The notes under the pieces were generated by a model. That model searched no databases. It saw only the letters and a program-made list of their open reading frames with translations, and was not told where the DNA came from. DNA of 64,000 bases from Candidatus Aminicenantes bacterium (GTDB lineage: Bacteria; Acidobacteriota; Aminicenantia; Aminicenantales; UBA8522). Below are positions 32,440 through 54,905 of this stretch, piece by piece. Position 1 is the first letter of the stretch. Each line of letters starts with the position of its first letter. The stretch lies in NCBI GenBank assembly GCA_017886205.1, contig JAFNEO010000040.1, forward strand, positions 57,346-121,345, written 5' to 3'. The translations under genes and the position numbers were made by a program.

Positions 32440-32630
32440 GCGCCCGTAGCTCAGTGGATAGAGCGGTGGACTTCGAATCAGAACGGACTGATTTTCCTAA
32501 CCTCCTGAAAACAAAGTAATAGTCAATCTTTCCAGCAAGTTACAAATTATCTCTAGGTATACGGAAGTATACGAAAGTATATGGAAGTATACCGGGGATG
32601 GTCACAATTTGGTCACAATTACATAAGCCA
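32440..32630 (+). repeat. Second truncated 5' copy of tRNA-Arg(TCG) (nt 1-40) plus a conserved arm
   Basis: It matches the 22660-22850 repeat at about 93% identity. The tRNA portion is identical to the intact gene through cttcgaatc. Confidence 0.8.
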
Positions 32631-36531: not shown

Positions 36532-37587
36532 ATGTTTCACATCGGATTGGATATGCACTAGAAGTTTTCGAGAGTTGAGGTTATGGATGAAGAGGGTCAA
36601 GCTATCGATCAGAGAGTTTTGTACCATGATGATCAGGAGAAGATAAGGGAGTACTTTAGTCACATCGGTCAAGACGGAACAGTCACTCTCGAGGCCACAC
36701 GCAACTGGTACTGGCTCTTTGAGCTTTTGGAAGAGGAAGGGTTAAGGGTCAAGCTGGCTCATCCCTCAAAGGTCCGATTAATCGCCGAGGCCCGAATAAA
36801 GACAGATTCTATCGATGCCTCCACGCTGGCTCATCTGGAGAGAACAGGATATCTTCCTGAGGCCTATATTCCTTCCCGGGATGTTCGGGATAATCGAGAA
36901 CTTTTGCGTTACCGGCTTTCTCTGGTCAGAATCAGAACCAGCCTGAAGAATCGCATCCATGCCATCCTGGATAAACTGGGGATAAACCATCCTTTCTTTG
37001 ACCTCTTTGGGAAAAAAGGCCGAGAGTTTCTCAGGGCGCTCTCTTTGAGGGACGTTTACAGAAAGGAGCTGGACGGCTATCTGTCAACCATTGAATTTTT
37101 AGATGAGATCCTCAAAGGGATTACCAAAAGAATCCAGACGAGCCTAGAGAAGGATCCTCAAGCTGAGCTTCTGATGAGCATTCCTGGAATTTCCTATCTC
37201 ACGGCGCATCTTCTTCTCTGTGAGATTGGAGACATCCAGCGTTTCCCTTCGGCGAAGAGATTGTGTTCTTATGCCGGGATTGTTCCAGGGACTCATCAGA
37301 GTGCTGATCATATCTGGCATGGCCCCATCACCAAACAAGGCAATTGCTACACCCGCTGGGCCATGGTTGAAGCTGTTCAGAAGGCCCTTGCTCAAGATCC
37401 TGTACTGGCCATTTTTTACCAAAAACTCAAAAGGGAAAAAGGGGCGGCTAAAGCCCGAGTGGCAGTCGCTCGGAAGCTATTGGTAGCTGTCTATTATGTG
37501 CTGAAGAAAGAAGAGAGATACAAATTTAATTCGCTGACAAGAATACATCTGGGCAAGCCCAGGAGCTCAACTGGTCACTTAGAGTAG
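36532..37587 (+). mobile_element. IS110-family transposase gene interrupted by an in-frame TAG at codon 10 (36559-36561). Translation could restart at the ATG at 36583.
   Basis: The strong RBS aaggaaaggagg precedes the ATG at 36532 (MFHIGLDMH*KFSRVEVMDEEGQ...). The N-terminus has the conserved IS110 opening (IGLD..K.S.V.VMDE.G). The C-terminus has the IS110/IS116/IS902 transposase domain (PGISYLTAHLLLCEIGDIQRFPSAKRLCSYAGIVP). Confidence 0.75.
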
Positions 37588-39280: not shown

Positions 39281-39380
39281 TTTTTCAAGATCATCGGATT
39301 TCCCATCCGTTGCTCTACAGGCAAATAAAATGTGTTTGTTCAACACTTTTTGATATAAGAGCGCCTTGAATTTGCTGCAT

Positions 39381-39399
39381 TTGTGACCAGATTGTGACC
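39381..39399 (+). repeat. Inverted-orientation copy (ttgtgaccagattgtgacc) of the arm repeat ggtcacaatttggtcacaatt found after the 5' tRNA fragments
   Basis: Its reverse complement is ggtcacaatctggtcacaa, compared with 22820-22840 and 32600-32620. It lies 60 bp upstream of the intact tRNA. Confidence 0.6.
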
Positions 39400-39459
39400 T
39401 GAAGTCGGTTTTACAACGGCCCCAACATGATGTAATATCTATTCCCAATTCCGAATTGC

Positions 39460-39532
39460 GCGCCCGTAGCTCAGTGGATAGAGCGGTGGACTTCGAATCC
39501 AAAGGTCGGGGGTTCAAATCCCTCCGGGCGCG
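39460..39532 (+). tRNA. tRNA-Arg, anticodon TCG (intact, 73 nt, CCA not encoded)
   Basis: The cloverleaf has the acceptor stem GCGCCCG/CGGGCGC, D arm GCTC-AGTGGATA-GAGC, anticodon loop CTTCGAA, a 5 nt variable loop, and T arm GGGGG-TTCAAAT-CCCTC. Confidence 0.85.
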
Positions 39533-39580
39533 CTCCCATATTCCCCATATAAACCCCCTTATAATCAGCATTTTGCCGAG

Positions 39581-39641
39581 TCCGTGATTTTACCCGATTT
39601 TCCGTGATTTTCCGCTTTAGGGTGGAGCCAAAGTGGAGCCA
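39581..39641 (+). promoter_or_regulatory. Putative integrase arm-type sites: the direct repeats tccgtgatttt (x2) and GGTGGAGCCAAAGTGGAGCCA
   Basis: The 21-mer at 39621-39641 recurs exactly at 54781-54801, 60 bp upstream of the att core at the other end of the element (inside the 3' end of the integrase gene). Confidence 0.45.
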
Positions 39642-39746
39642 AGTTTGGAAAATCTTATCGGAATAGTAGGGTTTAGAAACGATGACTCAAGTTGACATCC
39701 ACGCTGTTTTTATAGAAAAATATAGACTGAAACAGGAGATTGAAAG

Positions 39747-39935
39747 ATGAGCGAATTCCAACCGGGCATGGTCGTTCAATTAAAATCAGGTGGTCCCAGA
39801 ATGACCGTGAGGAGAATTGGTAGTGGAAACGTAGGCGGTGAAAACGATATCGATTGTGAATGGTTCTCCGGCGGCAAAGTTATAACGAAGAGTTTTAAGC
39901 CAGAGGTGCTTAAGGTTTTGGAAGGCCAAGAATAG
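39747..39935 (+). CDS. Small DUF2158/YodC-like protein (62 aa)
   Basis: The pattern GMVVQLKSGGPRMTV...CEWFSGGK is typical of the YodC family. The RBS caggagattgaaag is present. Confidence 0.4.
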   Translation: MSEFQPGMVVQLKSGGPRMTVRRIGSGNVGGENDIDCEWFSGGKVITKSFKPEVLKVLEGQE

Positions 39936-39961
39936 GATAAATTCCCTCCTGATCTGGTCGG

Positions 39962-40219
39962 CTATTCGCTCGAGGCGTCAATGTCCTGCTTAATGGTGGC
40001 GAGGAAATATTCCCTGATCTTCTTCGCGATATTTTCCCGGTCCTGTGGGCCTTGCATCTTGAGGATCAACGCAATATCTTTTTTCTCGCGTTCAGAAAGC
40101 GGCTGGTTATACTTTTTAAGGTTAAGATAGATTTCATAAAGTCGCAAGTGCTCATGTTCCCAGCCCGTTTGATCTACCATACTAAACCTCCTCCGTGCTC
40201 TTCTACCGGAGTATAGCAT
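39962..40219 (-). CDS. Hypothetical small protein (72-85 aa), the last gene of the minus-strand cargo cassette
   Basis: It is an intact ORF downstream of, and co-oriented with, the AT-rich genes. No recognisable domain was found. Confidence 0.35.
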   Translation of the reverse strand: MLYSGRRARRRFSMVDQTGWEHEHLRLYEIYLNLKKYNQPLSEREKKDIALILKMQGPQDRENIAKKIREYFLATIKQDIDASSE

Positions 40220-40439
40220 ACTCTGTCCTCGAGTTCGAGCCGATATATCGTGAAGAAGCGCTCAAGCGTCATACCGGAAGACCCCCCAAAAATATCTGTA
40301 CTAAGGATACAGATATTTCAGAAACGGGCCTTTCCCGCGTCTTCATGGCCCGCGATTCCGGCCAGGGTGAGCATACTGTGCAGCGCGTTCTCTTTCAGTC
40401 CCTCCCCGGAAACGTCAATGCTTTAAATTTCAATCGGGC

Positions 40440-40769
40440 TTATTCTTTTTTAGTTTCTTCTTTATCTTCCTCTATCCTATTTCCCCATTTTTCGTATAAT
40501 GCATTTCTAATCTCATGTGACAAATCCAAATTCTGTTTATGCTCTTCCCTTTTTAATTCTAAAAATATTACTGCCAGCCATACTAATTTTTCAAGTGGCA
40601 GGTTTTTCAGAATTTTGGATTGAAGAAATTCTATTTCTTTTATGTTTTCATAATTCTTCTTATCTTCTTCATTCTTTTTTCTTTCAAGATCAAGAAGCCA
40701 ATCGGCAATTGAATCGTGTGCTCTGTGCTCTTTTAAGTCTTCAAGCAAAACAAAATATTTTTTATTCAT
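40440..40769 (-). CDS. Hypothetical Lys/Glu-rich coiled-coil protein (109 aa) in the AT-rich cassette
   Basis: It lies in a segment of ~30-35% GC, against a ~60% background. The 26 bp gap after the upstream 295 aa gene suggests an operon. Confidence 0.45.
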   Translation of the reverse strand: MNKKYFVLLEDLKEHRAHDSIADWLLDLERKKNEEDKKNYENIKEIEFLQSKILKNLPLEKLVWLAVIFLELKREEHKQNLDLSHEIRNALYEKWGNRIEEDKEETKKE

Positions 40770-40795
40770 TTTCTCCCCTTTTTATTTAGACTTTT

Positions 40796-41683
40796 TTAGG
40801 CTGCCCATGAAGTCATTTTATCAAAATTTTCTTTGGCCTCAAAAATAGAATAAGGAGCCATTTTTTTTATGCCTTCGAATATAAGATGCATATCCCTATC
40901 AAAGCGTTTGAACCAAAATATCCAATCTGGATTCAACGATATTTTTCTGTTTTTCTTATTCCATGCGATTAATTTTCTGAATTCTAAATAGCTCAAATAA
41001 AGTATTAAATCGTCTCTTTTAATGTGAATTTTTCTTGATATGTCTCTTTGACCGACTTCTCGGTTTTCTTTTGATAGATAGTCGAATATTTTAAATGAAT
41101 ATTTAAGAATCGGCCTAAAGATTTTATAAAATGCCCACTCGAGATTTTCTGGAGAAAGAGACCAAGCGGGCCGAAAATTGTTTTTTGGGTACCGTCTTAT
41201 AATTTCAAACATGTTTTCTAATTCGAACATAAACCAACTTATCTCAATAGGAGCAAGTATTCTCGCATTATCTCTAGCATTTATAATTCCTGATAGATTG
41301 AATCTTTTGTCGTACCTTGAGATTATCCTGAAATGTTCCCTTTCTTTCTGCATATGATTCGTCTTCCATTTTTGCCCCGTAATTCTTTCATATAATTTTA
41401 AAATATCCTCCCATTTATGAACTCGGTTTTTATTATGACTAAAAAATTTAGAGTTTTGTCTATTCTTGCTATATGAATGAACATGAGCCAACCAATAAAG
41501 GAAAAAAGAATCCTTCTCGATTCGTATTCTCTTATTTTTAGATTTAACAAAATGAAATAGGCAGGAAGGGCAGCTACAATTTTTATGAACTAGGTCATTT
41601 TGAAAATTTTCATAAGACTTTTTAAGGTCTTTCTCTGTCACTATTTTGCCATTCGAGGTGGCCACTGACTTTTCCCCTAACAC
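40796..41683 (-). CDS. Hypothetical protein (~295 aa) with a Cys/His cluster (CSCPSC...H.H), AT-rich. It is a candidate accessory or defence gene. The start codon is uncertain.
   Basis: It is a long intact ORF in a ~30% GC segment inside a ~60% GC element. It is divergent from the XRE regulator gene with only a 16 bp gap. No recognisable family was found. Confidence 0.45.
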   Translation of the reverse strand: MLGEKSVATSNGKIVTEKDLKKSYENFQNDLVHKNCSCPSCLFHFVKSKNKRIRIEKDSFFLYWLAHVHSYSKNRQNSKFFSHNKNRVHKWEDILKLYERITGQKWKTNHMQKEREHFRIISRYDKRFNLSGIINARDNARILAPIEISWFMFELENMFEIIRRYPKNNFRPAWSLSPENLEWAFYKIFRPILKYSFKIFDYLSKENREVGQRDISRKIHIKRDDLILYLSYLEFRKLIAWNKKNRKISLNPDWIFWFKRFDRDMHLIFEGIKKMAPYSIFEAKENFDKMTSWAA

Positions 41684-41693
41684 AGATTAATCT
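41684..41693. promoter_or_regulatory. Perfect 10 bp palindrome AGATTAATCT between the divergent cassette and XRE genes (candidate operator)
   Basis: It sits exactly in the 16 bp gap between the cassette ORF start (41683) and the XRE ATG (41700). Confidence 0.3.
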
Positions 41694-41699
41694 TATCAT

Positions 41700-41912
41700 A
41701 TGCTGAAAAAAATTTCAACTAAGTCACGGTTTAGAATGATTCGAATTTTGAAGGGCTTGACCCAATTCGATCTTCAAAAAAAGAGTGGGGTATCTCATTC
41801 CACGCTCAGCATGATCGAGCGAGGACACCGTGAGCCTACTAGTAAACAAAAGAAAACATTGACTCGGGTTTTAGGCGTGCCCGAGCAATCTATTTTCGGC
41901 GAGGACGAATGA
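41700..41912 (+). CDS. XRE-family (Cro/CI-type) helix-turn-helix transcriptional regulator
   Basis: The motif LKGLTQFDLQKKSGVSHSTLSMIERG is a classic HTH_3. Confidence 0.8.
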   Translation: MLKKISTKSRFRMIRILKGLTQFDLQKKSGVSHSTLSMIERGHREPTSKQKKTLTRVLGVPEQSIFGEDE

Positions 41913-42130
41913 CTGATTACCCGCGCCGTTTTTGGACGATCGCGCAGACGGCCGATTTTTTGCAGCTCTCAATCAAATGTATATATGCTATGGCCAGCCG
42001 CGGGAGCCTACCGGTTGTCCGGATTTGTCCGGGACGGAAGAAAGGGCTGCGGATCGATGGACGCGAGCTCGAACGGCGGCTGGAGAAGCAGATCGAGGCC
42101 GGCGCGGGAACCAAGGGGCCGCAGAGATGA
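41909..42130 (+). CDS. AlpA/excisionase-family small DNA-binding protein
   Basis: TIAQTADFLQLSIKCIYAMASRGSLPVVRICPGRKKGLRIDGRELERRL matches the phage AlpA/Xis-type HTH. It shares 4 bp overlaps with both of its neighbours. Confidence 0.55.
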   Translation: MTDYPRRFWTIAQTADFLQLSIKCIYAMASRGSLPVVRICPGRKKGLRIDGRELERRLEKQIEAGAGTKGPQR

Positions 42131-43521
42131 GTACGGATTATTCACGGTTGATCCTGGGCTCGCTCATTATGCGGCCAGCGCTTCTGGAATCCTCGGACAT
42201 AGGCGACGGTGATTTTCCGGATGGGTTTGACGCGAAAATCTTCCGGGCGATCACTGAGGAGTGGGAAAACAGTCGCCCGGACTGTATTGACATCAATTGC
42301 TTGACGGCCAAGATCGGCGGGAATGGTGCCCACGTCTCGAGCCTACTCGATGGGCTTGTTAAACTCGACGATCAGACCTTTGGCCGCTATCTCCTCGAAT
42401 ATAAAAAACGGAATGCGGCTCGACGGTTGGCAAAAGCCTTAAAATCAGAACTGGATATAGAGTTTAAGACGGGAGAGCTTTGCCTCGATAAGATCGTTCC
42501 GTTACTTGACGAATACAAATGCCTTGAAAATTCGGCGGCTAATTTTGTCCCGTTGTCTGAGGTTGAAGCTGCGCCGATAGTTTGGCTGTGGGAGCGGCGG
42601 ATCCCAGTCGGTATGCTAAGCCTTTTGGCTGGTGCGCCGGAAGCCGGAAAGTCATTTCTTTCACTGGCGATGGCCGCCCGACTGAGTCGCGGTGTGGCCC
42701 TGCCCGACGACGGCGGCAATCCCCGGCTGTGCTCGACGCTCGTGATAGCATCTGAAGACCCGCTTGCCCAAGCGGTAAGGCCCCGGGCCGAGGCGAATGG
42801 GGCGGACCTGAACCGAATCTTTGTTGAGAAGAGCGAATATTTCGGCGAAGACATCGGTACCGAGCTAAGGCGAATTCGACAGACCATCCGTCAGAAAAGG
42901 GATATCGGACTTATCATCGTTGACCCGCTCAATAATTTGATGCCCGGCCGAGCTAATTGGTTCCAAGATCCGAGCGTCCGCCGCGAGCTGCTTCAACCGC
43001 TCATCGAGTTGGCCGAGGGGGAGCAGGTCTCTATCCTGGGCATCGTCCATTTAACGAAGGCCGAAGACCTCGGCGCCCTGGCCCGGATCCCCGGCTCAAT
43101 GGCCTACGGGGCCGCAGCCCGTTCCGTCATCGGTGTTGGTCTAGATCCGGATGACAAGGATGAAAAGCGCCGACTAGTTGTCAGCGTCAAAATGAACTAC
43201 GCCGAGAAGCCGGACGCCGTCGCCTTCCGAATCGGTTCCGATCTTCGAGTCACGTTTGAAGACAATCCCATCCAAAATGTCAGCGCCGACGACGTCTTGT
43301 CTAAGCGTCCGGAAGATAAAGCGAGCAGATCATTCGCTGATGAATGGCTCCAAGACCAGCTCTCCAATGGTCCCGCCGAAATCCACCGCCTCGTGATCGA
43401 AGCCAAAAAGGTTGGCATAGCGGCCAGCACTCTCTACAGGATAAAAGGCCGACTCAACATCAAACATCGATCCCAAGGCTTTGGCGAATTTAAGAAGTCA
43501 ACGTGGGAGCTTTTATCATGA
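42127..43521 (+). CDS. Replication protein with a DnaB-N-like domain plus an AAA_25/RecA-like NTPase (RepA/primase-associated helicase-like)
   Basis: The Walker A is LLAGAPEAGKSFLSL and the Walker B region is LIIVDPLNNLM. The N-terminal helical domain resembles DnaB-N. Confidence 0.55.
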   Translation: MSTDYSRLILGSLIMRPALLESSDIGDGDFPDGFDAKIFRAITEEWENSRPDCIDINCLTAKIGGNGAHVSSLLDGLVKLDDQTFGRYLLEYKKRNAARRLAKALKSELDIEFKTGELCLDKIVPLLDEYKCLENSAANFVPLSEVEAAPIVWLWERRIPVGMLSLLAGAPEAGKSFLSLAMAARLSRGVALPDDGGNPRLCSTLVIASEDPLAQAVRPRAEANGADLNRIFVEKSEYFGEDIGTELRRIRQTIRQKRDIGLIIVDPLNNLMPGRANWFQDPSVRRELLQPLIELAEGEQVSILGIVHLTKAEDLGALARIPGSMAYGAAARSVIGVGLDPDDKDEKRRLVVSVKMNYAEKPDAVAFRIGSDLRVTFEDNPIQNVSADDVLSKRPEDKASRSFADEWLQDQLSNGPAEIHRLVIEAKKVGIAASTLYRIKGRLNIKHRSQGFGEFKKSTWELLS

Positions 43522-43549
43522 AAGGACCCCAATATTCTCATCTTACTTT

Positions 43550-43630
43550 AATAATAATATTGAGAAGATTGAGAAGATTGAGAAAAATGATGTTCCCAAT
43601 ATTCTCAATTTTCCCAATTTTCTCAGGTGA
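43550..43630 (+). repeat. Iteron-like direct and inverted repeats (ATTGAGAAG x3, inverted TTCTCAAT copies), a candidate origin of replication
   Basis: The sequence aatattgagaagattgagaagattgagaaaaatgatgttcccaatattctcaattttcccaattttctcag lies immediately downstream of the replication gene in a locally AT-rich stretch. Confidence 0.4.
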
Positions 43631-43971
43631 GAGTAGTGAGAATATTGATGGCAAAATCCCGCCCCGAGGCAGTCGTCTTCGGGCTGGATCGATACCTGGA
43701 ATTCTGGCCGGGTTTTCCCCTGGAATGCTGCGTCGCCTAAGAGCTATTATGTCAACTAGGAATCGCCGCAACTATATGATAAATCAACAACTTCCACAAA
43801 CGGGATTTTTATTATTTCTCGGGAAAAATTATCTGCCCCAAAACAGAGATTCCGTCCCGTTGTGCCTCATAAAGACGGGGGTATATCCCATTTATATGCC
43901 ATTTTTGAGGTTTTTATCCCATTTTGAGAAGGGCCGACTACGGACGCCGAGTGCAATTTTAGGGGGTTTAC

Positions 43972-44556
43972 ATGGGTGATTTGGGCTTTACCAGACAGAA
44001 GGATCCCGTCACCGGGCGGTTCCTCCCAGGCAATAAGGGCAATCAGAAGCACGGAGTCAACGTCTTTCTTCAGACAGGCAAGCTGCCCTCTGTTCGGGGC
44101 AAGCGCCTCTTGAATAAGTATTTGAGGCAGTTCGAGAAGGACCTACTGGAGGCCCTCGGGGGCTCACCTACGCCCCAGCAAGAGTGCCTAGTCCGGCAAG
44201 TGCTGAGGGCTGAGGGTGTCCTACGCCTGATAGAGATATGGCTTCAGAAGGTGCCAGCGATCAGCGGGAAGGCGTGGAAGCGGGGCTCCCTTGAATTGCA
44301 ACCCTGTCTCGCGCAGAGCTATGGATTTTTCCTCAACGTCCAGCGGCAGGCGCTTCTGGCATTGGGTTTAGACCGGAAGCCTGAACCCGGCCAGGACTTA
44401 GCAACGATTGTCGCTGAAATAGACGAGAAGGCCGCCGCTGAGAAGGCCGAGCGCGGGGCTGCTGGTCAGGAGGTCCAGGGCCAGGGCAAGGAGACGGGGG
44501 AGGGCGAGGAAAGCGATCCTGGGGCAAATGGAGGAGAAAAAGATGGAAGCCATTGA
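43972..44556 (+). CDS. Hypothetical phage protein with an acidic Gly/Glu-rich tail
   Basis: It is an intact ORF. No recognisable family was found. Confidence 0.35.
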   Translation: MGDLGFTRQKDPVTGRFLPGNKGNQKHGVNVFLQTGKLPSVRGKRLLNKYLRQFEKDLLEALGGSPTPQQECLVRQVLRAEGVLRLIEIWLQKVPAISGKAWKRGSLELQPCLAQSYGFFLNVQRQALLALGLDRKPEPGQDLATIVAEIDEKAAAEKAERGAAGQEVQGQGKETGEGEESDPGANGGEKDGSH

Positions 44557-44812
44557 GTACCGGAAAAAAGAGATCGCGTTCACGAGCTTACGGAATTGCA
44601 TTACGTTCTGCTCGCTGGTGAACTTGCCAACGTTTAATCTTGGCAGGATCGCGAAAGTTTTTGATGTGGACGAAGGATTTCTCCGCCTTTGGCAACATCA
44701 GAACCGCGCGTTGATCAATAAGGTGCTCGGGCAGTACGGGGAAGAAATAACAGAGGAAACAAAGAAGCGATCGATGGAGGGTGAGGGGCAGGGGGGGGAA
44801 TGAGGAGACAAG

Positions 44813-45112
44813 ATGAGAGAACATGAGAACGAAAGCAGACTTGTCGCCGAGTTCGACAAGAACAGCATGGAGCTGGTCAAGGTTCACTTGACCCGATGGC
44901 ACAATGTCGATTATGTGGACGTCAGAGTCTGGGTGAAGGGTGAGCCGGGCAGTTCGGGCGCTGAGCAGCCGACGACGCGGGGCATTCGGATAAGTGCCGA
45001 GCTCCTACCGGACCTGCGTTCTGCGATTGACGTGGCGATTGAGGCGCTCGAGGATGGGCCGAAAGTCGAAATCGTCCATGATGGCGCCCAGGGGAGCCGG
45101 GAGAGTCGCTGA
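44813..45112 (+). CDS. Hypothetical protein, possibly a PC4/YdbC-like ssDNA-binding fold
   Basis: The pattern ...ELVKVHLTRWHNVDYVDVRVWVKG...TTRGIRISAELL resembles the bacterial PC4-like signature (K..V.V..F.G...VDIR.W...KGI.L). Confidence 0.3.
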   Translation: MREHENESRLVAEFDKNSMELVKVHLTRWHNVDYVDVRVWVKGEPGSSGAEQPTTRGIRISAELLPDLRSAIDVAIEALEDGPKVEIVHDGAQGSRESR

Positions 45113-45177
45113 TGGCGCGCGTGGGGGGCCAGAAGTCCTTGTTAACGGGCTCAAGACGGGCGATCGCGGGGAATAGG

Positions 45178-45351
45178 ATGTCCTATAAGCGCTGCCTGGT
45201 CTGCCTGGGTCCTGTGGCTAGGGGAAAGAAAATCTGTTCTCCCCGCTGCCGGCTGGTCAAGTGGGGAGCTAAGGCGCTGCTGGAGGCATACCGGGAGGGC
45301 CGCGCTGACGGCCTGCGCGATGTTATCAAAAAGCTGGGTGAGGCGGTGTAG
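45178..45351 (+). CDS. Small zinc-ribbon protein (CLVC...CSPRC)
   Basis: Two CxxC pairs are present. The ATG is internal to a longer ORF. Confidence 0.3.
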   Translation: MSYKRCLVCLGPVARGKKICSPRCRLVKWGAKALLEAYREGRADGLRDVIKKLGEAV

Positions 45352-45414
45352 TGAACGTCATCGAGGCGATTTCAGGAATGATTACAAAAAAAATCAAATC
45401 GGAGGTGAAATAAA

Positions 45415-45675
45415 ATGTGTGACTATGATCCAAAAAAAGAGCTTCAATCGTGGGAAGATGCGAAAAAGGCGATGCGTTGCCCGCGTGCAAAAGAAGCGCG
45501 GGAAGCCTTATTTTTGAGCGTCCCTCAGTTCTGCCAGCTTATGGAGATTTCTGAAGGCGATTACTACGACATGGTAGCCGGCTCAAAGCAACTCTCGCTT
45601 TCAAACAAACTCTTTCTGGTCGAGGCCATCCGGATTGCGAGGGAGCGGGGCCTCATCGTTGACGAAAGAGATTAG
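45415..45675 (+). CDS. Hypothetical small phage protein
   Basis: It is an intact ORF with the RBS ggaggtgaaataaaATG. Confidence 0.3.
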   Translation: MCDYDPKKELQSWEDAKKAMRCPRAKEAREALFLSVPQFCQLMEISEGDYYDMVAGSKQLSLSNKLFLVEAIRIARERGLIVDERD

Positions 45676-45833
45676 CGGGGGCAAGCATGAGAACATTTGC
45701 CTGTCTTAGCATCATGTTTTTTCTGGCGCATTTCAACGTAAGAATTGGCCTCTTGGGGATTTTCCTGACCTTCGCTTTCCTCGTCGCCTTTTTTCAAGAT
45801 ATTAGGGAACTCATTGGCGTCAGGAAATAAAAA

Positions 45834-46085
45834 GTGAAAATGATCGACTTTGAAATCCCCTGCCTCCGCTGTGGCCGCGTTATCAGGGGACGGAGAAGGG
45901 AAGATGAATACGGGAAGCACTTTTCTTGTAAACGATGCGGTGGCCAGTTTTCGATCACCTTTGAACTTCCGGACCTCGAGGCTGCCTTCATCGCCGGCGA
46001 GTTGCGACCAGGCATAGTCGTGAGGCGATCCAGACTGATTGAGGATAACTTCCCGGCGGCGGCAATATTTGGGAAGAGGAGTTAA
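45834..46085 (+). CDS. Small zinc-ribbon protein (CLRCG...CKRCG)
   Basis: Two CxxC pairs are present. Confidence 0.35.
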   Translation: MKMIDFEIPCLRCGRVIRGRRREDEYGKHFSCKRCGGQFSITFELPDLEAAFIAGELRPGIVVRRSRLIEDNFPAAAIFGKRS

Positions 46086-46236
46086 AGATGGACACGAAGC
46101 AATTTGAATTGCTTTTAAAGATTTTGGGGAAGGATAAGCAGGCACAGTCGTTGCCAGGTGGCGACGGGATTAAGGATGAAACGCCCCCAAAAAGCCAGGG
46201 AGAAAAGGCGCATTTGGGGAAAACTTTTTATCAAAA

Positions 46237-46641
46237 TTGGGTGGCGAAAACGGAGGATGGAGGCTAATGATGGACGAGAGGGACTTTGGATTATTTTTAA
46301 GTGCAGTCAAAGGCAAGTCCTTGGCTGAAATTCGGGGGGCGGAGATTGAGCGAGTTTTGAAGGAATTATTGGCGGGGGAATTTGCTGAAGTGAAAGAGAC
46401 AAAATTCAAGGTCATGCTAAAGAAGCCGAGCGGTGGCGGCCTGGCTTCTATAAACAAGGTTGAGGACCAAGTTTACATCTGGGTTGACCCTGAAAATTGG
46501 AAACACAGTTTCAGTAAGGAAATAATCCGAAGTTTAATGCGCCATGAGCTGCTGCACCTTGAGCTTGGCCTCATGGACGATGCCGACCCAAGATTTAAGC
46601 AGGCGGCGAGGGAACGTGGTATCAGCATATGGAATGTTTGA
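46237..46641 (+). CDS. Hypothetical protein with an HExxH motif (MRHELLHLE), possibly a SprT-like metallopeptidase fold
   Basis: The call rests on the single motif only. Confidence 0.3.
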   Translation: MGGENGGWRLMMDERDFGLFLSAVKGKSLAEIRGAEIERVLKELLAGEFAEVKETKFKVMLKKPSGGGLASINKVEDQVYIWVDPENWKHSFSKEIIRSLMRHELLHLELGLMDDADPRFKQAARERGISIWNV

Positions 46642-47251
46642 AAAAAGGAGCAAAGAAGTGAAGAGGGAAAAACCGAAGGGGCAGCAGGAAGTTGTTATTT
46701 CCTACCAAAAAGGGCGGATGGTTTTCGAGGTAGGCGACCGGGAATTTTACCTGACAGAAGAAGCAGCCGGGAAACTTTTTGGGCGAAGCGTTGGAATTGA
46801 ATTCGAGCGCCTATCCGGTAAGGACGAAGATTTCGGCGGCATCAAGAGCCTGGGAAATTTTATAAAGATTGCCCGGTTGATGAGAAAAGGATTGCCGTAT
46901 TTTTCAATAGCCAAAGCTATGAATTATTCGGAACAGCAAGTCAAAGAATTTTACAACTTTGAAGTGCGAAGGCCGCGGGTAGAAGGTTTTAACGTCCAAT
47001 CGATTGAGAACGAGCGCCAGCGTCAGGCAGCCGACGAGATGGACTTCTGCCGTGAGGCACAGCGCCCTCGCGCCTTGAACGAGACCGCCGATCCGACGCC
47101 CGGGGAAAAGTTTGTCGATTTACTGCGAGTCAAAACCTTACAACGCCAGGGCAAAAAAAACGGAGAGATCGCCGATTATCTAAGTCTTGACCGGACTGCG
47201 TTTGATAGATTTCTAGAAAAGAATCGGCAGTATTTGGACTTGATTCCATGA
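46634..47251 (+). CDS. Candidate terminase small subunit (the alternative GTG start at 46658 has a better RBS)
   Basis: It sits immediately upstream of the large terminase and has a C-terminal HTH-like segment (GKKNGEIADYLSLDRTAFDRFL). Confidence 0.4.
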   Translation: MFEKRSKEVKREKPKGQQEVVISYQKGRMVFEVGDREFYLTEEAAGKLFGRSVGIEFERLSGKDEDFGGIKSLGNFIKIARLMRKGLPYFSIAKAMNYSEQQVKEFYNFEVRRPRVEGFNVQSIENERQRQAADEMDFCREAQRPRALNETADPTPGEKFVDLLRVKTLQRQGKKNGEIADYLSLDRTAFDRFLEKNRQYLDLIP

Positions 47252-47338
47252 GGTTAGCTTTCTCTTTCATGGATACGTTTTCCGATATGGGGGAGCTGGG
47301 TCAGCCATTCCCGGCTCCCCACTCTTAAGCGGAAGTAA

Positions 47339-48745
<1,407 letters not shown>

Positions 48746-48758
48746 TGCGAGGTAAAAA

Positions 48759-49127
48759 ATGAGAGACGTGACAGTTAAAATTGGGGGGAAGAAACGAACG
48801 CTGAAATACACTAAGGATGTTTATTATAAAGTTGGGGAGATACTGGGCAAATCATGGTTACAAGAAGAGAATTTGAGTGCTAAGGTTATTGGCGCCCTTC
48901 TATGGGCGGGCCTGCTCTGTGAGGACCCTAACCTTGATTTGGCTGAAGTGGAAAAAGCAATGGGGGAAATTAATCGAAAGAAATTAAGAAAATTACAGAA
49001 GGCGATTAAAAGAGCCTTGCTCAATTACAGTCAAAAACTGGATCAAGGCATAAAGAGGGTATCTGAAATCAGGGGTAAAGTTGATGAACTAGGGAAAACG
49101 CTTGATACCTTGAAGAAGGACATTTAA
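48759..49127 (+). CDS. Hypothetical protein, positionally a tail assembly chaperone
   Basis: It is a 122 aa ORF directly preceding the tape-measure gene. Confidence 0.3.
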   Translation: MRDVTVKIGGKKRTLKYTKDVYYKVGEILGKSWLQEENLSAKVIGALLWAGLLCEDPNLDLAEVEKAMGEINRKKLRKLQKAIKRALLNYSQKLDQGIKRVSEIRGKVDELGKTLDTLKKDI

Positions 49128-49137
49128 GGAGAAAAAC

Positions 49138-51633
49138 ATGAGCGGCAAGATTGGGGAACTTTACATAGTCTTCGGTGCGCATCTAGAAGGTTTCAACAAG
49201 GGCATATCCGATGCCCAAAAAGCAATGTCTGGGGTGGGGCAATCCGCTGAGGGTATTTCATCTAAACTCGGTGGGCTTTGGAAACAATTTGCAATCGGGC
49301 AAATAGCTGCTAATGCTATAACAAAGGGAATTGGATTCGTTAAAGATTCCCTGGTCGATTCCGTCAGGGCGGCAATGGAATCCGAGAATACGCAACGGGC
49401 ACTTGCCTCGGCACTTGAAACGACCGGAAGAAATGTCAATGCTATGCTCCCCGGATTGGTAAAGTTTGCCGGTGAGCTTCAAAAACAAACCATACGAACC
49501 GATGAGGCGGCGATGTCCGCACTTGCCCTCTTGGCCCAATTGACCGATCTTGATGAGGAAGGGTTGAGGGTTGCCACTCAAGGCGCCGCCGGAATGGCGA
49601 CGGTCTTCAAGATGGACCTGGAAACCGCGGCCCGAAATGTTGCCAAGGCGATGGAAGGCAACTATACCATGATGGGGCGTTATATCCCTCAGCTCAAGGA
49701 CTGCAAGACCGAAGAAGAAAAACACGCCCTTGTTATGAAGACGATGGCGGAATGGTACGGACGTGCCACGGATGAGACAGGTACTTTCAGTGGATCACTC
49801 AAGCAACTCGGCAATATGTGGGATGAGGTCAAGGAAGCCGTCGGCAGGGCGGTTACGGAAAATCAGGCAATCAAAGATTTGATTGCTAAGGTTAAAGATG
49901 GAATCGTCAACCTGATCGAATCCGGCAAAATTGCTGAATGGGCGACATGGGCGGGCAAAGTATTGCATGACCTAGTCGATACATTTGTAGCCGTTATTAA
50001 TGTTGTCGATAAAGCAAAGACTGGATTCCAAATGCTGACGGGTTCTATGCCTGGCGAAAAATTCCTAAGGATGAATAAGGACATCTGGGAGCAGATTCAG
50101 GCCGGAAAAAGGGCGGTTGATGATTTCGAGAAGTCGCTGAAAATATTAAAACCAACGGAAGAAGAATTAAGGAAAGAAATCGAGAAGGGGCCTGAATCCT
50201 GGGAAAAGTATAAAGCAGGAATCAAGGCGACCGATGACCAACTTGCTGCGAATAAGGATACTATTGTCGGATGGATGACAAAAGAACTTGAGGGCATCGG
50301 TCTTCTTGAAAAAGCAAAGGAAACTGCCGATAAGAAAGCCGAAACAATAAGAACATTATCAACCAGGATAGACACGGCAGCTTTATCTCAACGCGATCTC
50401 AATACGGCAATCCAGAACGGCATCTATTCCCAGGATTCGATTACCCGGGCATTGGAATATTATAGCGAGGAAATTGTGGACACGGCTATCCCTGCCTCGC
50501 GTGATTTGGCCGATACCATAAGTCAGGCGGCCGGTACGATTCCCGATATCTCCAAGGCGGCGGGGGAGGCGGCCAAGGATACAAAGACTTTTATGCAGGA
50601 AGTCTCGACGGTCGTTTCCGACGCCATGCGGAATGTCGGTCGGTCAATGGTGGAGGCTCTTGGACTTGCCGAGATGTTCAACTATAAGGCCAAAGAATTC
50701 AATGATGATTATTACCAGATCGTGCTTTCCGATATCGAAGTGGAGTATGAAAAGCGAAAAAAATCCATAATGAACAGCATTACCGACGCCGAACTGCGTG
50801 CTCAAGCCCTGGCCGAGCTTGACGCCTGGTATCAAAAGGAATGTGATCGAATTCGGATTGATGAAGACAAAGCCAGACAGGAACATGCCGACCGGGAAGA
50901 AAAGCGGCAGAATTCGCTTTGGACAAAAGTCAAGGGCATCTTCGGCACGGCCGTTGAGGAAATGCTGACGATATGGATGACCAAACTTATCACCCCACTT
51001 TTAACGTCCATCACCGAAACACTGTTTCCTTCCCTTAAAGAGCTAGGAGAAAAGGGCAAAGAGGCTGGAACAGCGGCAGGTACGGGACTCTCATCTGGCA
51101 TCGGTGCCGGGGTTACGGCCGCCCTGGGTGCGATCGGTATGATCACGGCGGCATTTACCGGATTTATGGCACTTATTAATTGGTTAGATTCGAAACTTCA
51201 CGGGATGCCCACAGCAGCGGAACAAAGGGCAGCAGAAGAGGCTTATAAAGAAGAGGTGGCAAAAGAATATCCGGGTATTGAATTCGTCGAAAATACTAAG
51301 AGGAAAAAATCGGGAACATTACCAGACGTTGATGAAGGTTATCAGCATGGGGGTATTGCCTGGACGCCACAGCTCGCCCGCGTCGCCGAGACTGAGCCAG
51401 AGATCATCATGCCGTATAGGCAGTATTTGGGGGAGCAGCGGGGGGCGATCGCCGGCGTCGGAGCAAGAACGGTGAACTATAACTCCGCATATACAATCCA
51501 AGTTTCTGCAATAGATTCCCAAGATGCTTACAGATTCATGTCAACAAAGGGCCGTGAGGCGCTGGAGAAAATCATCAAGGAGAATGTCCGCGGGATCACG
51601 AGGATTCTGAGCGAGGAGACGGGGAGGTATTGA
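49138..51633 (+). CDS. Phage tail tape measure protein
   Basis: The 831 aa product is largely alpha-helical and coiled-coil. It has a Gly-rich hydrophobic segment (GTGLSSGIGAGVTAALGAIGMITAAFTGFMALI) typical of tape measure proteins. Confidence 0.65.
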   Translation: MSGKIGELYIVFGAHLEGFNKGISDAQKAMSGVGQSAEGISSKLGGLWKQFAIGQIAANAITKGIGFVKDSLVDSVRAAMESENTQRALASALETTGRNVNAMLPGLVKFAGELQKQTIRTDEAAMSALALLAQLTDLDEEGLRVATQGAAGMATVFKMDLETAARNVAKAMEGNYTMMGRYIPQLKDCKTEEEKHALVMKTMAEWYGRATDETGTFSGSLKQLGNMWDEVKEAVGRAVTENQAIKDLIAKVKDGIVNLIESGKIAEWATWAGKVLHDLVDTFVAVINVVDKAKTGFQMLTGSMPGEKFLRMNKDIWEQIQAGKRAVDDFEKSLKILKPTEEELRKEIEKGPESWEKYKAGIKATDDQLAANKDTIVGWMTKELEGIGLLEKAKETADKKAETIRTLSTRIDTAALSQRDLNTAIQNGIYSQDSITRALEYYSEEIVDTAIPASRDLADTISQAAGTIPDISKAAGEAAKDTKTFMQEVSTVVSDAMRNVGRSMVEALGLAEMFNYKAKEFNDDYYQIVLSDIEVEYEKRKKSIMNSITDAELRAQALAELDAWYQKECDRIRIDEDKARQEHADREEKRQNSLWTKVKGIFGTAVEEMLTIWMTKLITPLLTSITETLFPSLKELGEKGKEAGTAAGTGLSSGIGAGVTAALGAIGMITAAFTGFMALINWLDSKLHGMPTAAEQRAAEEAYKEEVAKEYPGIEFVENTKRKKSGTLPDVDEGYQHGGIAWTPQLARVAETEPEIIMPYRQYLGEQRGAIAGVGARTVNYNSAYTIQVSAIDSQDAYRFMSTKGREALEKIIKENVRGITRILSEETGRY

Positions 51634-51865
51634 CGATGGGGGCTACTTTATGAGCTTCGATTCAAGAAAGTGGTCGATATCGGACTTTCGGAAGAGGACC
51701 TTCCGCTCCAGCTTGATATACGGGAAGGCATGAGCCTTCATGAGACGAAAAAGGGTCTGATGTGAAATCTTGAGATATTCCATGACCGCCTTTTTTGTCA
51801 TGAGGACATCGGTTTCCATGCCGGGGAGATACTATCATCCCGAGAAAAATAAATCAAAAAACCCC

Positions 51866-51894
51866 TTGACAGGGTTTTTATTATGTTCTATTAA
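51866..51894 (+). promoter_or_regulatory. Candidate promoter TTGACA-17-TATTAA, with the downstream direct repeat TGATATTA x2
   Basis: It is a perfect -35 with an AT-rich -10, about 40 nt upstream of the 51933 gene. Confidence 0.35.
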
Positions 51895-51932
51895 ATGATA
51901 TTAGATGATATTAAAATAAGGGAATAGAGACC

Positions 51933-52115
51933 ATGAAAGCATACCTGACCGTTGAAAAAATCATGGGGATCCTCCAGATTTCCCGGACTACGGCTTACGG
52001 CCTCATCAGCTCTCGCCGTTTGAAGAGCTACAAGGTGGGTCGGCTGGTTCGAATCCGCGAGATTGACCTCAAGCATTTCATTGAGGGGAAACCCTCAAGG
52101 AAAAATAAAAAATAG
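51933..52115 (+). CDS. Excisionase/HTH_17-family DNA-binding protein
   Basis: The motif LQISRTTAYGLISSRRLKSYKVGRLVRIREIDL is a typical Xis-like winged HTH. Confidence 0.55.
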   Translation: MKAYLTVEKIMGILQISRTTAYGLISSRRLKSYKVGRLVRIREIDLKHFIEGKPSRKNKK

Positions 52116-52128
52116 AGAGGAGGAGATT

Positions 52129-52305
52129 ATGGTTGGAGACATTTTTCTAAACTTTACCCGCGACAAAATCCTAAACGTCAACGTCAAGGACGCGGATGCG
52201 CAAGAAGGCGTTGAGGTTGGGATTGAAAACGGGAATGTCGAGCTGCAGGTTAGGTTTTCCAAGAAACAGATCGCGGTTCTTCGGGCGGCTTTGGAAAAAT
52301 ACTAA
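52129..52305 (+). CDS. Hypothetical small protein
   Basis: The RBS gagaggaggag precedes the ATG. Confidence 0.3.
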   Translation: MVGDIFLNFTRDKILNVNVKDADAQEGVEVGIENGNVELQVRFSKKQIAVLRAALEKY

Positions 52306-52343
52306 TCACGGCGGCGGAAAACAAAATCAAAAAGGAGGAGACG

Positions 52344-52733
52344 ATGAAACCGAATGATGGGAAAGGCGGAATTCCCAACCGGGATTCCAAGGGTCGTTTC
52401 TTTCCGGCCGGCCAGATGGATCCACAACAAACAGTGACGCACCGATGGATGGAGGAGGAGGAGAAGCTAGCCAAGATTTATGTCCAGGTCTGCGAACAGA
52501 TCGGACAGGCAAAACTCATTAAGTTTCTGGACATCAAACAGTATCGAGTCGGATCCAGGACGGGCATTTTTTTCTCCGGCTTTTTGACCGGCATTGGTTT
52601 TGCAATCGGGAAGGGAAGAAAGAAAAATAAAAGAGTCCCCGTCTTGACACTTTTGAAAGAGACTATAGGCGTCGAAAAAAATATTCTTCGATTTGAACAT
52701 AAGTGGCACGAGCTCGTTAAACAGGGAAGGTGA
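52344..52733 (+). CDS. Hypothetical protein
   Basis: It is an intact ORF with the RBS aaaggaggag. Confidence 0.35.
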   Translation: MKPNDGKGGIPNRDSKGRFFPAGQMDPQQTVTHRWMEEEEKLAKIYVQVCEQIGQAKLIKFLDIKQYRVGSRTGIFFSGFLTGIGFAIGKGRKKNKRVPVLTLLKETIGVEKNILRFEHKWHELVKQGR

Positions 52734-52807
52734 AGCCTGATCTTCTCGCGGAGGCCGGGGCTTCGGTCCCGCCCGAGTCGAGGAACTCAAAGAGCAAGGA
52801 ACAAAGA

Positions 52808-53161
52808 ATGCCCATATTCAAGAGTCCGCGGCGCATCCCAATTGGTGTCTCGTGGTCCGAGGTCTGGGAAATGCAAGAGGAGATGTTTAGACGGAGACCT
52901 TTCCGCCCGGCTGGGCGGCCTGGGCCTGAGCCCGATGCGAGAGATGCGGGAGCGGCTTTTCTGGCAAAGCTCCTCGAGGATCGAGCCGAAGTTCTAGCCG
53001 TGGAGGGACTTGATCTGGCTCGGCTAGAAGGCATCAGCGAGAGAACGCTTCGGCGGGAAAAAAGCGCGCTCGGCATTAAGAGCCGGATGCGGAAGGTGAA
53101 GGACGGGGAGTGGCGATGGACCTGGGTGAAGCCATTAGAAGAGAAGCGGGGCAAAGCATGA
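52808..53161 (+). CDS. Hypothetical protein with a possible HTH
   Basis: Both the start and the function are uncertain. Confidence 0.25.
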   Translation: MPIFKSPRRIPIGVSWSEVWEMQEEMFRRRPFRPAGRPGPEPDARDAGAAFLAKLLEDRAEVLAVEGLDLARLEGISERTLRREKSALGIKSRMRKVKDGEWRWTWVKPLEEKRGKA

Positions 53162-53640
53162 TGAAAGGAAAAGAGTTCGGCCCGAAGAAAACCAAGCGTG
53201 ATTATGATAAGTGGGAAAGGTCGCCCGAGGGAATCCGCTATAACATGACGACTATGGGCGATGTCACAACCGAAGATGAAGCGAATAACTGTCTTATTGT
53301 GCAAGTCCTCCAGCGACTTCCAAAAAGAATCAGAGAAAAGGTTTTAGAAAAAGTGATATTTGTGCATACTGTCGCCGACGGAACCGTGCATCCATTTCTT
53401 CATGGAGAGGGGGGTGGTGGGGCGTATATTATCTTTAACTTTCGAGGAATCAAAAGCGAGAAGCGCAAGCTGTGTACGATCGCACACGAGATCGGGCATT
53501 TTATTTCGGCCTCCAAGAACCCGACCAAATCGGTTCCCGCAGATGAGAACGAACGTCGCGCGGATGATCTCTCTGAAAAGTGGGGATTCGGCAGAGCTTA
53601 TAAAACTTACAAACGGTTCAAAGGAGCCTTTTCATTATGA
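53158..53640 (+). CDS. Putative HExxH zinc metallopeptidase (ImmA/IrrE-like?)
   Basis: The motif IAHEIGHF is present. It lies near the integrase and regulatory genes. Confidence 0.35.
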   Translation: MMKGKEFGPKKTKRDYDKWERSPEGIRYNMTTMGDVTTEDEANNCLIVQVLQRLPKRIREKVLEKVIFVHTVADGTVHPFLHGEGGGGAYIIFNFRGIKSEKRKLCTIAHEIGHFISASKNPTKSVPADENERRADDLSEKWGFGRAYKTYKRFKGAFSL

Positions 53641-53721
53641 AACAAGAAAAAAATCTCGTCTTCATCCGGGCCAAGGACGGCAAGTCGGATTTGTCGCTTA
53701 TCCTTTAATGAGAGGTGAGGC

Positions 53722-54846
53722 ATGAAATTCACCGAGATCAAAGACGACAAGGGCCGAAGGTGGCAGATTGATTTCAACTGTCGCGGCCACAGGATCAACC
53801 GGATCGTTTATGGAGACCGGCGCCATGCTGAGGATGAGGCGATCCGAATCAAAGCCGATATTCTGGCCGGCAGATTCATCCCGGTCAAGGAAAAGGGGAG
53901 ACATCAGGAGGACGGCTCATTCTCGGCTCACGCGGACGAGTTTCTCAAGAGCTACTCAAAGCAGAGAAAAAAGAGTTGGACCCGAGATGAAATCTCAATC
54001 GAGAATCTCAAAGACTTCTTCGCCGGAATGAACCTGGCCGATGTCACGAGCCGCGATGTCGAAAGGTATATGGCCAAGAGGAGCGCGGACCAGGACAAGC
54101 GAGTGAAGGAACCGGGGGAGGAGACGCCGACGATCTCCCATTCCACGATCAACCGGGAGCTCGCCTGTCTCAAGACGATGCTCGAGAAGGCCGTTGAGTG
54201 GGGCAAGCTCAAAGAGAATCCGGCCAGGAAGGTCAAGAAATTCCGTGAGGAGAAGCAGGGCGAGCGAATCCTGACGGCCGATGAAAAAGAAAAGTTGATC
54301 GCAGCCGCAAGCGCCGAGCTCCGGCCCATTCTCACGATCGCGCTCAACACGGGCATGCGGAAGGGCGAGATTCTCAACCTGCGCTGGTCTGACGTAGACC
54401 TCGTGAAAGGCTATATCCTGATCAGCCGGACGAAGAGCGGGGAGCCGCGGAAGGTCCCGATGAATCATCACGTGCTCGGCGTCCTGGGCGGCATGGAACA
54501 GCGGGGGGAATACGTTTTCGAGGGCGAAAAGTCCGGCGCTCCTGTCACCGATGTGAAGACGAGCTTCCGCGGGGCTTGCAAAAGGGCGAAGATCAAGGGG
54601 CTTCGTTTCCATGACCTGAGACACACCGCGGCCACGATGATGGTGGAAGGCGGCATCGACCTCGTAACGGTCTCTCGGATCCTGGGACACTCTTCGATTC
54701 AGATGACCATGAGATACGCTCACCCGACACCGGAGAATATGCGGCTAGCGGTTCAAAAGCTCGGAGAATTCTTTGATAGAGGTGGAGCCAAAGTGGAGCC
54801 ACGCAAGATCAGGCCATCTGCAACTGCTTTGAAATCATACAATTAG
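53722..54846 (+). CDS. int: Tyrosine-type site-specific integrase (phage integrase family)
   Basis: It has an N-terminal SAM-like/AP2-like domain. The catalytic residues lie in GMRKGEILNLRW and HDLRHTAATMMVEGGIDLVTVSRILGHSSIQMTMRYAHP (R...HxxR...Y). The gene ends 14 bp before the tRNA 3' fragment. Confidence 0.9.
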   Translation: MKFTEIKDDKGRRWQIDFNCRGHRINRIVYGDRRHAEDEAIRIKADILAGRFIPVKEKGRHQEDGSFSAHADEFLKSYSKQRKKSWTRDEISIENLKDFFAGMNLADVTSRDVERYMAKRSADQDKRVKEPGEETPTISHSTINRELACLKTMLEKAVEWGKLKENPARKVKKFREEKQGERILTADEKEKLIAAASAELRPILTIALNTGMRKGEILNLRWSDVDLVKGYILISRTKSGEPRKVPMNHHVLGVLGGMEQRGEYVFEGEKSGAPVTDVKTSFRGACKRAKIKGLRFHDLRHTAATMMVEGGIDLVTVSRILGHSSIQMTMRYAHPTPENMRLAVQKLGEFFDRGGAKVEPRKIRPSATALKSYN

Positions 54847-54860
54847 ACCGCAGAACAAAC

Positions 54861-54905
54861 GGACTTCGAATCCAAAGGTCGGGGGTTCAAATCCCTCCGG
54901 GCGCG
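54861..54905 (+). repeat. 3' copy of tRNA-Arg(TCG) (nt 29-73), followed by an encoded CCA. This is an attR-type remnant.
   Basis: ggacttcgaatccaaaggtcgggggttcaaatccctccgggcgcg is identical to the intact tRNA from the anticodon stem onward. The CCA that follows is absent from the intact gene. Confidence 0.8.

Follow-up and report, generated by a model that had tools for sequence, protein, structure and literature searches.

An AT-rich block in a small integrated element of Candidatus Aminicenantes bacterium encodes a putative DNA-binding lysogeny regulator of an undescribed family

An AT-rich block with two minus-strand genes

The DNA analysed here is a stretch of 64,000 nucleotides (the window) of contig JAFNEO010000040.1 from Candidatus Aminicenantes bacterium, which carries a 15.4 kb element (39534-54906) integrated at a tRNA-Arg gene. 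Between the left attachment site (attL) of this element and a short regulator gene of the XRE type lies an AT-rich block of about 1.25 kb (~40430-41690) that contains exactly two genes in the same orientation, both on the minus strand. The first one (40796-41683, GC 0.32) codes for a basic protein of 295 aa (pI 9.9) belonging to an uncharacterised family, which is described below from its homologues, alignments, an AlphaFold model and synteny. The second one (40440-40769, GC 0.29) begins 26 nt past the stop of the first, has its own GGGGAG ribosome-binding site and codes for a Lys/Glu-rich protein of 109 aa (pI 5.7); the two genes are probably co-transcribed. A first-pass annotation of this DNA had placed the block between attL and the regulator and had described it as running opposite to the other genes of the element. 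Both statements held up, the former through 46-bp repeats of the tRNA-Arg gene and the presence of an integrase gene.

The GC content of the block is 31% compared to a mean of 54% for the window. When the sequence was scanned with a frame of 1250 bp (mean 0.536, sd 0.05), the lowest value was 0.312 at 40401 and the next-lowest elsewhere was 0.461, so that the block is the sole such outlier in 64 kb, in agreement with the sharp drop reported in the first-pass annotation. The surroundings, given there as ~60% GC, are less extreme, with immediate flanks of 0.45-0.55. The left edge is abrupt, at ~40422, just beyond the stop of the 109 aa gene (40440), while the right edge fades over 41690-41880, the XRE gene being intermediate (GC 0.43). 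A third open reading frame (ORF) of 72 or 85 aa had been counted as part of the AT-rich cassette; the 295 and 109 aa genes are indeed inside the block, but this ORF (GC 0.45) lies outside of it, beyond a 220-bp spacer with a GC content of 0.52. In an Rfam scan of 39300-42200 only the tRNA was matched and no other structured RNA was found, and the inverted repeats present inside the block look like chance matches.

The 295 aa protein and its family

As the first-pass annotation had noticed, the proteins of the block resemble no family that can be named. The 295 aa protein gave no significant family in Pfam, PHROGs (none at E<=0.01), NCBIfam or PADLOC, nor did these libraries assign the 109 and 85 aa proteins significantly to any family; a match to DUF3797 (E=0.016) in the scans of these three proteins was below the cut-off. 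A word-indexed search retrieved only five close homologues of the 295 aa protein, with 56-63% identity. With a HMMER profile built from these five, an exhaustive search yielded 45 representatives of 50% identity clusters at E<=1e-3, 18 of them at E<=1e-10. Most family members have 220-340 aa, a few short fragments also match, and none of the members is assigned to a Pfam family. No match was obtained by tblastn against 50,697 phage records, and a scan of IMG/VR revealed no relatives.

In an alignment of 27 sequences (A2), Cys36 is invariant and His33, Cys38 and Cys41 are conserved in at least 90% of the members. These four residues form an H33-x2-C36-x-C38-x2-C41 motif (codons at 41561-41587, minus strand) that a further 21, more distant members also show in their consensus, and from these family alignments we infer a zinc or other metal-binding site. 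Other near-invariant residues of the 27-sequence alignment are Y24, F60, K126 and R217. The CSCPSC...H.H cluster pointed out by the first-pass annotation thus stands in its first half, conserved family-wide as H33-C36-C38-C41, but not in its second, since the H.H residues H67 and H69 are conserved in close relatives only.

An AlphaFold model computed with only six sequences reached a mean predicted local distance difference test score (pLDDT) of 57, and only its winged helix was usable. With the 27 sequences, pLDDT rose to 91.2 and the predicted template modelling score was 0.80. The latter model consists of a helical N-terminal region (residues 17-163) carrying the H-C-C-C motif, a canonical winged helix and two C-terminal helices. 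The winged helix-turn-helix (HTH), residues 178-252 (40928-41152, minus strand), is MarR-like and shows the helix-strand-helix-helix-hairpin wing order of this fold, with helices at 178-206, 212-219 and 223-235 and strands at 239-242 and 247-250 forming the hairpin (239-250). Comparison of the full-length model with the Protein Data Bank (PDB) gave matches to the winged helix only, and these were to regulators of the MarR, IclR and ArsR types, not to Rep proteins. In addition, the family profile matches the MarR-type regulator 3bro_A with E=2e-4 over the winged-helix segment, while a LexA chain appeared in the profile search only at E=1.2. Among the predicted viral structures of BFVD nothing significant was found for the full-length model. 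At the level of sequence families, the 295 aa protein has no match to HTH_3 or Peptidase_S24 and none to the Pfam families MarR, MarR_2 and HTH_27; one of the 27 members matches MarR_2 with an E value of 0.0079, below threshold. Unlike MarR proteins, the 295 aa protein is twice their size and has an N-terminal domain of ~180 residues that they lack. Remote homology and structure, which the first-pass annotation had proposed as a check on its defence module, point to a winged-helix protein of the regulator type.

The gene calls of the Joint Genome Institute (JGI; L002-L007) give a shorter, 185 aa form that starts at Met111 and loses the conserved H-C-C-C domain. Since the homologue alignments extend over this domain, we consider the long form to be the real one. 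However, homologues align only from residue 13-15, and an AGGGGA Shine-Dalgarno-like site precedes a GTG codon at 41665. The true start is likely to be this GTG or the one at 41641.

Synteny, control region and a possible genetic switch

The position of the gene coding for the 295 aa protein (from here on, the family gene) was compared among the loci of its homologues, which are designated here by L numbers. In all 12 independent loci for which upstream sequence is available (the window, L001, L008, L009, L011, L012, L013/14, L015/16, L017, L020, L021 and L022), the family gene stands head-to-head with a short XRE gene coding for 58-70 aa. In the window, this XRE gene (41700-41912, plus strand; 70 aa, or 58 aa in the JGI call) matches HTH_3 of Pfam with E=1.6e-12 as well as repressor and regulator families of PHROGs. 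It is the first gene of a rightward operon and overlaps the second one at stop and start (ATGA at 41909-41912). The second gene of the operon (41909-42130, plus strand) codes for an excisionase/AlpA-like HTH_17 protein of 73 aa (Pfam PF12728, E=7.7e-8; PHROG 66, 'excisionase and transcriptional regulator'), and the succession of XRE and HTH_17 genes is found in seven of the 12 loci (the window, L001, L012, L013/14, L015/16, L021 and L022). Past HTH_17, where contigs reach further, there are replication and packaging genes. In the window, these include an AAA_25 (RepA/DnaB-like) replication helicase (42124-43521, plus strand; Pfam PF13481, E=1.9e-21, and primase/helicase families of PHROGs) and a large terminase subunit, TerL (47345-48745, plus strand; PHROG 9, E=7.5e-29), with 45-52% identity to its counterparts in L001, L012 and L015.

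Three differing replication modules were found beside the family gene, namely AAA_25, DnaG-primase/DUF3987 and Phage_rep_org_N. Since the replication modules vary while the family gene stays, the latter seems to be tied to the switch and not to the type of replicon. This bears on the possibility that the 295 aa protein is a winged-helix protein for replication initiation, partition or origin binding. Many plasmid and phage initiators use winged helices and AT-rich DNA often marks origins, and the protein is basic, as would be expected under that proposal. However, the gene is read in the opposite direction to the replication genes and stands apart from them, it accompanies three unrelated replication modules, no iteron-like repeats were found in or near it, and its winged-helix matches are to MarR, IclR and ArsR regulators instead of Rep proteins. 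Based on the synteny with the three modules and the lack of iterons, we rejected an initiator role, to which we give very little credence.

The family gene has diverged about as far as terL: identities to the window are 63% for the family gene and 52% for TerL in L001, 34% and 46% in L012, and 35% and 45.5% in L015. In L017, the family gene is located directly between the XRE and integrase genes without any cargo, which corresponds to the circular order of the window element minus its cargo. The constant synteny, together with this TerL-like divergence, indicates that the 295 aa gene is a core gene of the element lineage and not recent cargo.

The base composition of the relatives leads to the same point. 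Family genes have a GC content of 0.29-0.33 in six loci with early operons of 0.37-0.54, and in L015 the values are 0.42 and 0.51, respectively. In every relative measured the family gene is below its backbone, the contrast being greatest in the window (0.32 versus 0.54). Low GC is therefore a trait of the family and not a sign of recent import; it is a property of the family gene and the adjacent cargo across the element lineage. The recent acquisition from an AT-rich donor claimed in the first-pass annotation was thus not demonstrable for the 295 aa gene, and we judged it unlikely. A swap of immunity modules between related elements may have occurred, the GC contrast being largest in the window.

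The region between the family gene and the XRE gene is compact. The first-pass annotation had the two genes diverging across 16 bp. They do diverge, but this distance hinges on the GTG at 41683, and a gap of 34-58 bp is possible, because homologues align from residue 13-15 and because of the AGGGGA site before GTG 41665. A stretch lying ~27 nt before the conserved GTGACAGAAAAG start region is kept at the DNA level despite 1-nt indels, which suggests a regulatory or untranslated role for it and a true start near 41641-41665. A conserved upstream motif, CAsTrGCCAAyT, is present as a single copy per locus, and the control region revealed no clear conserved palindrome. By consensus match only, a candidate leftward promoter of the sigma-70 type (41690-41718, minus strand), consisting of TTGAAA, a 17-nt spacer and TAAGAT with a TG upstream of the -10 box, overlaps the start of the XRE gene. 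Analogous candidates, likewise abutting the XRE start, precede the family gene in relatives and are closer to the consensus: TTGACT-17-TATAAT in L001, TTGATT-17-TATAAT in L008/L011 and TTTACA-17-TATAAT in L013.

The family gene occupies the position of maintenance repressor genes such as lambda cI and SaPI stl. Because the XRE gene overlaps the next gene and heads an operon of the lytic type, its product appears to be Cro-like, which leaves the family gene as the sole conserved gene on the opposite strand. We are therefore inclined, if only slightly, to see the AT-rich block as the leftward arm of a genetic switch and the 295 aa protein as a DNA-binding lysogeny or immunity regulator of an undescribed family. 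In such a switch, the winged helix would bind the short control region shared with the XRE gene and keep the XRE-led rightward operon silent while the element is integrated, with the XRE protein in the role of Cro. Through its N-terminal H-C-C-C domain the 295 aa protein might oligomerise or sense a signal, and the 109 aa gene would ride on the transcript of the 295 aa gene, as rexAB or sie genes do on repressor transcripts.

With the CI/Cro switch of lambda, the locus shares a leftward gene between the integration module and the early operon that diverges from a short HTH Cro-like gene, a compact control region and extra genes on the leftward transcript. Unlike CI, the 295 aa protein has neither an XRE HTH nor an S24 (LexA-like) autocleavage domain, and it combines the H-C-C-C helical domain with a C-terminal winged helix; triplet operators like those of lambda were not recognised. 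The Stl repressors of Staphylococcus aureus pathogenicity islands (SaPIs) and other phage-inducible chromosomal islands (PICIs) offer a second parallel. These are small elements with int, a divergent regulator pair, a Xis/AlpA-like gene, a replication gene and their own terminase, as in the window, and their large lineage-specific regulator likewise joins a DNA-binding domain to a second domain. The differences are that neither PHROGs nor Pfam links the 295 aa protein to known Stl proteins, that its winged helix is C-terminal and that the integrase gene of the window lies at the far end of the integrated element.

Several observations weigh against a role of the 295 aa protein as lysogeny regulator. 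Neither in the full-length model nor in the library searches did its N-terminal ~180 residues show a recognised fold or function, and this region may act as an enzyme or in some other way that is not regulatory. The control region yielded no repeated operator, and the promoter scan was barely enriched over shuffled sequences, with nine candidates found versus 5.9 expected. In L019 (15-2208), an insertion sequence (IS) with a DDE_Tnp_1 transposase (577 aa) severs the N-terminal two-thirds of the family gene and leaves the 109 aa homologue intact, so that the gene is dispensable at least for the host. Finally, the XRE protein itself could be the repressor, perhaps together with a weak M78/ImmA-like protease encoded by the element. 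In systems of the ICEBs1 type, an M78/ImmA protease partners an XRE repressor, and, like ICEBs1 and the many prophages controlled by ImmR/ImmA, the window element has both a short XRE gene and an M78 protease gene, the latter (53110-53640, plus strand) with an IrrE/ImmA-like domain that passes weakly (Pfam PF06114, E=1.3e-4, 22.2 bits versus a cut-off of 22; PHROG 87). Unlike in ICEBs1, a distance of 11 kb separates the two genes, which are not co-transcribed, and the XRE protein has only 58-70 aa and heads an operon of the lytic type. No homologue of the M78 protein was found in the related loci fetched, of which only L012 and L017 cover the integrase-proximal region.

If the 295 aa protein does act as the lysogeny regulator, a new protein family, for which Pfam, PHROGs and NCBIfam hold no model, would do the repressor's job in the switch of a temperate element, and it would define a recognisable lineage of very small, terminase-carrying integrative elements in poorly studied environmental bacteria. 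For annotators, the family gene would be an anchor for finding such elements and their cargo slot. The case also calls for caution, as an AT-rich block beside an attachment site can be the element's own immunity region and not a recent defence island; no new defence mechanism is revealed by it. A broader proposal, which we regard as speculative and improbable, is that the H-C-C-C/winged-helix family constitutes a new class of master repressors for an undescribed lineage of small elements of uncultured bacteria, possibly tail-less satellites, with the N-terminal metal-binding domain as an induction sensor for a helper-phage protein or for redox state or metal and with the slot near the attachment site as a hotspot for defence cargo. 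Induction through such a sensor would differ from the RecA-dependent cleavage of CI.

The companion gene and the cargo slot

Homologues of the 109 aa protein were found only in L010 (62% identity), where the gene comes straight after the family gene, and in L019 (55%), where it follows the family gene truncated by the IS. Beside the family gene of L001, L009, L011, L012, L013, L015 and L017 it is missing. Judged by this distribution, the 109 aa gene is an optional companion specific to one subclade. The first-pass annotation had proposed co-occurrence of the 295 and 109 aa proteins as a check on its defence module, and the outcome is mixed: the pair recurs in L010 and L019, but it is absent beside the other homologues.

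The small ORF further left (39962-40219, minus strand) codes for 85 aa from 40219 or for 72 aa from the ATG at 40180. The latter start, which is preceded by GGAGGAGG and is the one called by JGI, seems more likely. By tblastn, the 72 aa ORF has no counterpart in the related loci. In the 220-bp spacer between it and the 109 aa gene there is a perfect 11-bp inverted repeat, AAATATCTGTA-7 nt-TACAGATATTT (40290-40318), which has no match in Rfam and could be a terminator or an operator. Beside attL, a gene on the plus strand (39747-39935, GC 0.46) codes for a small DUF2158 protein of 62 aa (Pfam PF09926, E=9.8e-13; PHROG 3261). From their arrangement, the 72 aa ORF and the DUF2158 gene are taken to be separate cargo between the 295/109 aa operon and attL.

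Genes downstream of the family gene differ from one locus to another. L001 carries genes for proteins of 104 aa and 146 aa and for a PIN protein, L009 one for a DUF4145 protein, and L012 those for a GIY-YIG protein and a 467 aa coiled-coil protein. In L011 there is a SIR2-like fragment, a hint given by a PADLOC match of E~1e-3 on 47 aa only, L013 and L015 have other, unrelated genes and L017 has none. Since these downstream genes are unrelated between loci, the region between the family gene and the attachment site can be considered a variable cargo slot. The suggestion of the first-pass annotation that the block occupies a hotspot is therefore sustained for the slot next to the attachment site, which varies among relatives, but not for the 295 aa gene, which itself is not cargo.

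These data also allow the original proposal to be weighed, namely that the 295 and 109 aa genes, with or without the 72 aa ORF, are an accessory cassette for anti-phage defence, of the abortive infection (Abi) or toxin-antitoxin (TA) kind, recently acquired from an AT-rich donor. The position beside attL, the opposite orientation, the AT-richness and the lack of a known family are all as expected for such a cassette, as are the PIN, GIY-YIG, DUF4145 and SIR2-like products of the neighbouring slot in relatives and the recurrence of the 295/109 aa pair in L010 and L019. Moreover, a gene that shares its transcript with a prophage repressor is often one for exclusion, as in the case of lambda rexAB. 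However, PADLOC returned no family even at E<=1 for the 295, 109, 85 aa and DUF2158 proteins, the family-library scans detected no effector or toxin domain in the first three, and in the 295 aa protein no domain other than a winged helix of the regulator type can be recognised. In 12 of 12 loci the 295 aa gene forms part of the syntenic core, with TerL-like divergence and family-wide low GC; its 109 aa partner is absent beside most homologues, and the 72 aa ORF is found only in the window and outside the block. The pair also differs from type II TA and Abi pairs in being confined to the window, L010 and L019 and in its lack of any such domain. We thus consider a defence cassette to be rather improbable and do not maintain the designation of accessory or defence module for the block. 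The 109 aa gene may still have a role in defence or exclusion.

The integrated element and its surroundings

The element is bounded by a tRNA-Arg gene with the anticodon TCG (39460-39533, plus strand; found by ARAGORN and, with 71.8 bits, as Rfam tRNA) and by an exact copy of its 3' part. The attL core corresponds to the 3' 46 bp of the tRNA gene (39488-39533, plus strand) and is repeated exactly at 54861-54906 (attR, plus strand), beginning 15 bp past the gene of a tyrosine integrase (53722-54846, plus strand; Pfam Phage_integrase, E=2.3e-36; PHROG 1, E=1.4e-80). From attL, the element carries the DUF2158 gene, the 72 aa ORF and then the 109 and 295 aa genes, which are read leftward. Rightward follow the genes for the XRE, HTH_17 and AAA_25 proteins, a PC4-like protein, TerL and an 831 aa protein, then small ORFs and the M78 protein and integrase genes. 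The 831 aa protein gave no match by tblastn to the 50,697 phage records. Related elements of 13-15 kb are those of L001, L012, L015 and L017; L012 comes from a metagenome-assembled genome of Candidatus Aminicenantes (DRHQ01000091.1), and its integrase is 41% identical to that of the window.

This gene content raises the question of whether the element is a capsid-forming, tail-less satellite, with the 295 aa protein as an Stl-like master repressor whose H-C-C-C domain senses a helper protein or redox state or metal. The capsid-forming PICI EcCIEDL933 has 15.4 kb and lacks tails; its genes include int, alpA and rep as well as those for capsid and terminase (10.1101/2022.09.08.507074). In size and gene content the window element is comparable: its 15.4 kb hold int, an HTH_17 gene of the AlpA/Xis-like type, genes for a helicase and TerL and a few ORFs of structural size, and no recognisable tail genes are found among its ORFs by Pfam and PHROG annotation, which leaves most structural ORFs, including the 831 aa protein, unassigned. 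The family gene lies in the position of stl, divergent from an operon resembling str/xis/rep and, in L017, beside int, and its large domain that does not bind DNA is conserved. On the other hand, tail genes may be hidden among the structural ORFs, most of which are unannotated, a helper phage is not known, and a role in sensing or metal binding is purely inferred. We therefore hold a satellite to be unlikely, though it is a compatible special case of the lysogeny regulator proposed here.

Some features of the DNA around the attachment sites may be added. Just inside attL there is a tandem GTGGAGCCAA(A)GTGGAGCCA motif (39621-39642), which recurs near attR at 54781-54801, where the integrase gene has its 3' end; these repeats could be arm-type binding sites of the integrase. 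Downstream of attR, further partial copies of the 3' part of tRNA-Arg are present at 56097-56129 and 57169-57183, and the flank after the copy at 56097 is the same as that after attR. The intervening segment (54907-56129), which encodes an ORF of 285 aa with no Pfam match, looks like what remains (1.2 kb) of an element integrated in tandem. An IS110-family transposase (DEDD_Tnp_IS110 and Transposase_20) is encoded at 36583-37587, 2 kb upstream of the tRNA-Arg gene. The 5' half of this tRNA gene, through the anticodon loop, is duplicated at 22656-22699 and 32440-32479, and each of these copies then runs into an identical non-tRNA sequence (AGAACGG..TGATTTT.CTAACCTCCTGAAAACAAAGTAATAGTCAATCTTTCCAGC). 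The two copies resemble junctions that a different element, with the anticodon loop as its target, has left behind, but between them there are ordinary-looking cell genes coding for a TonB-dependent receptor, a Ser/Thr kinase with tetratricopeptide (TPR) repeats, a diacylglycerol (DAG) kinase and a metallophosphoesterase.

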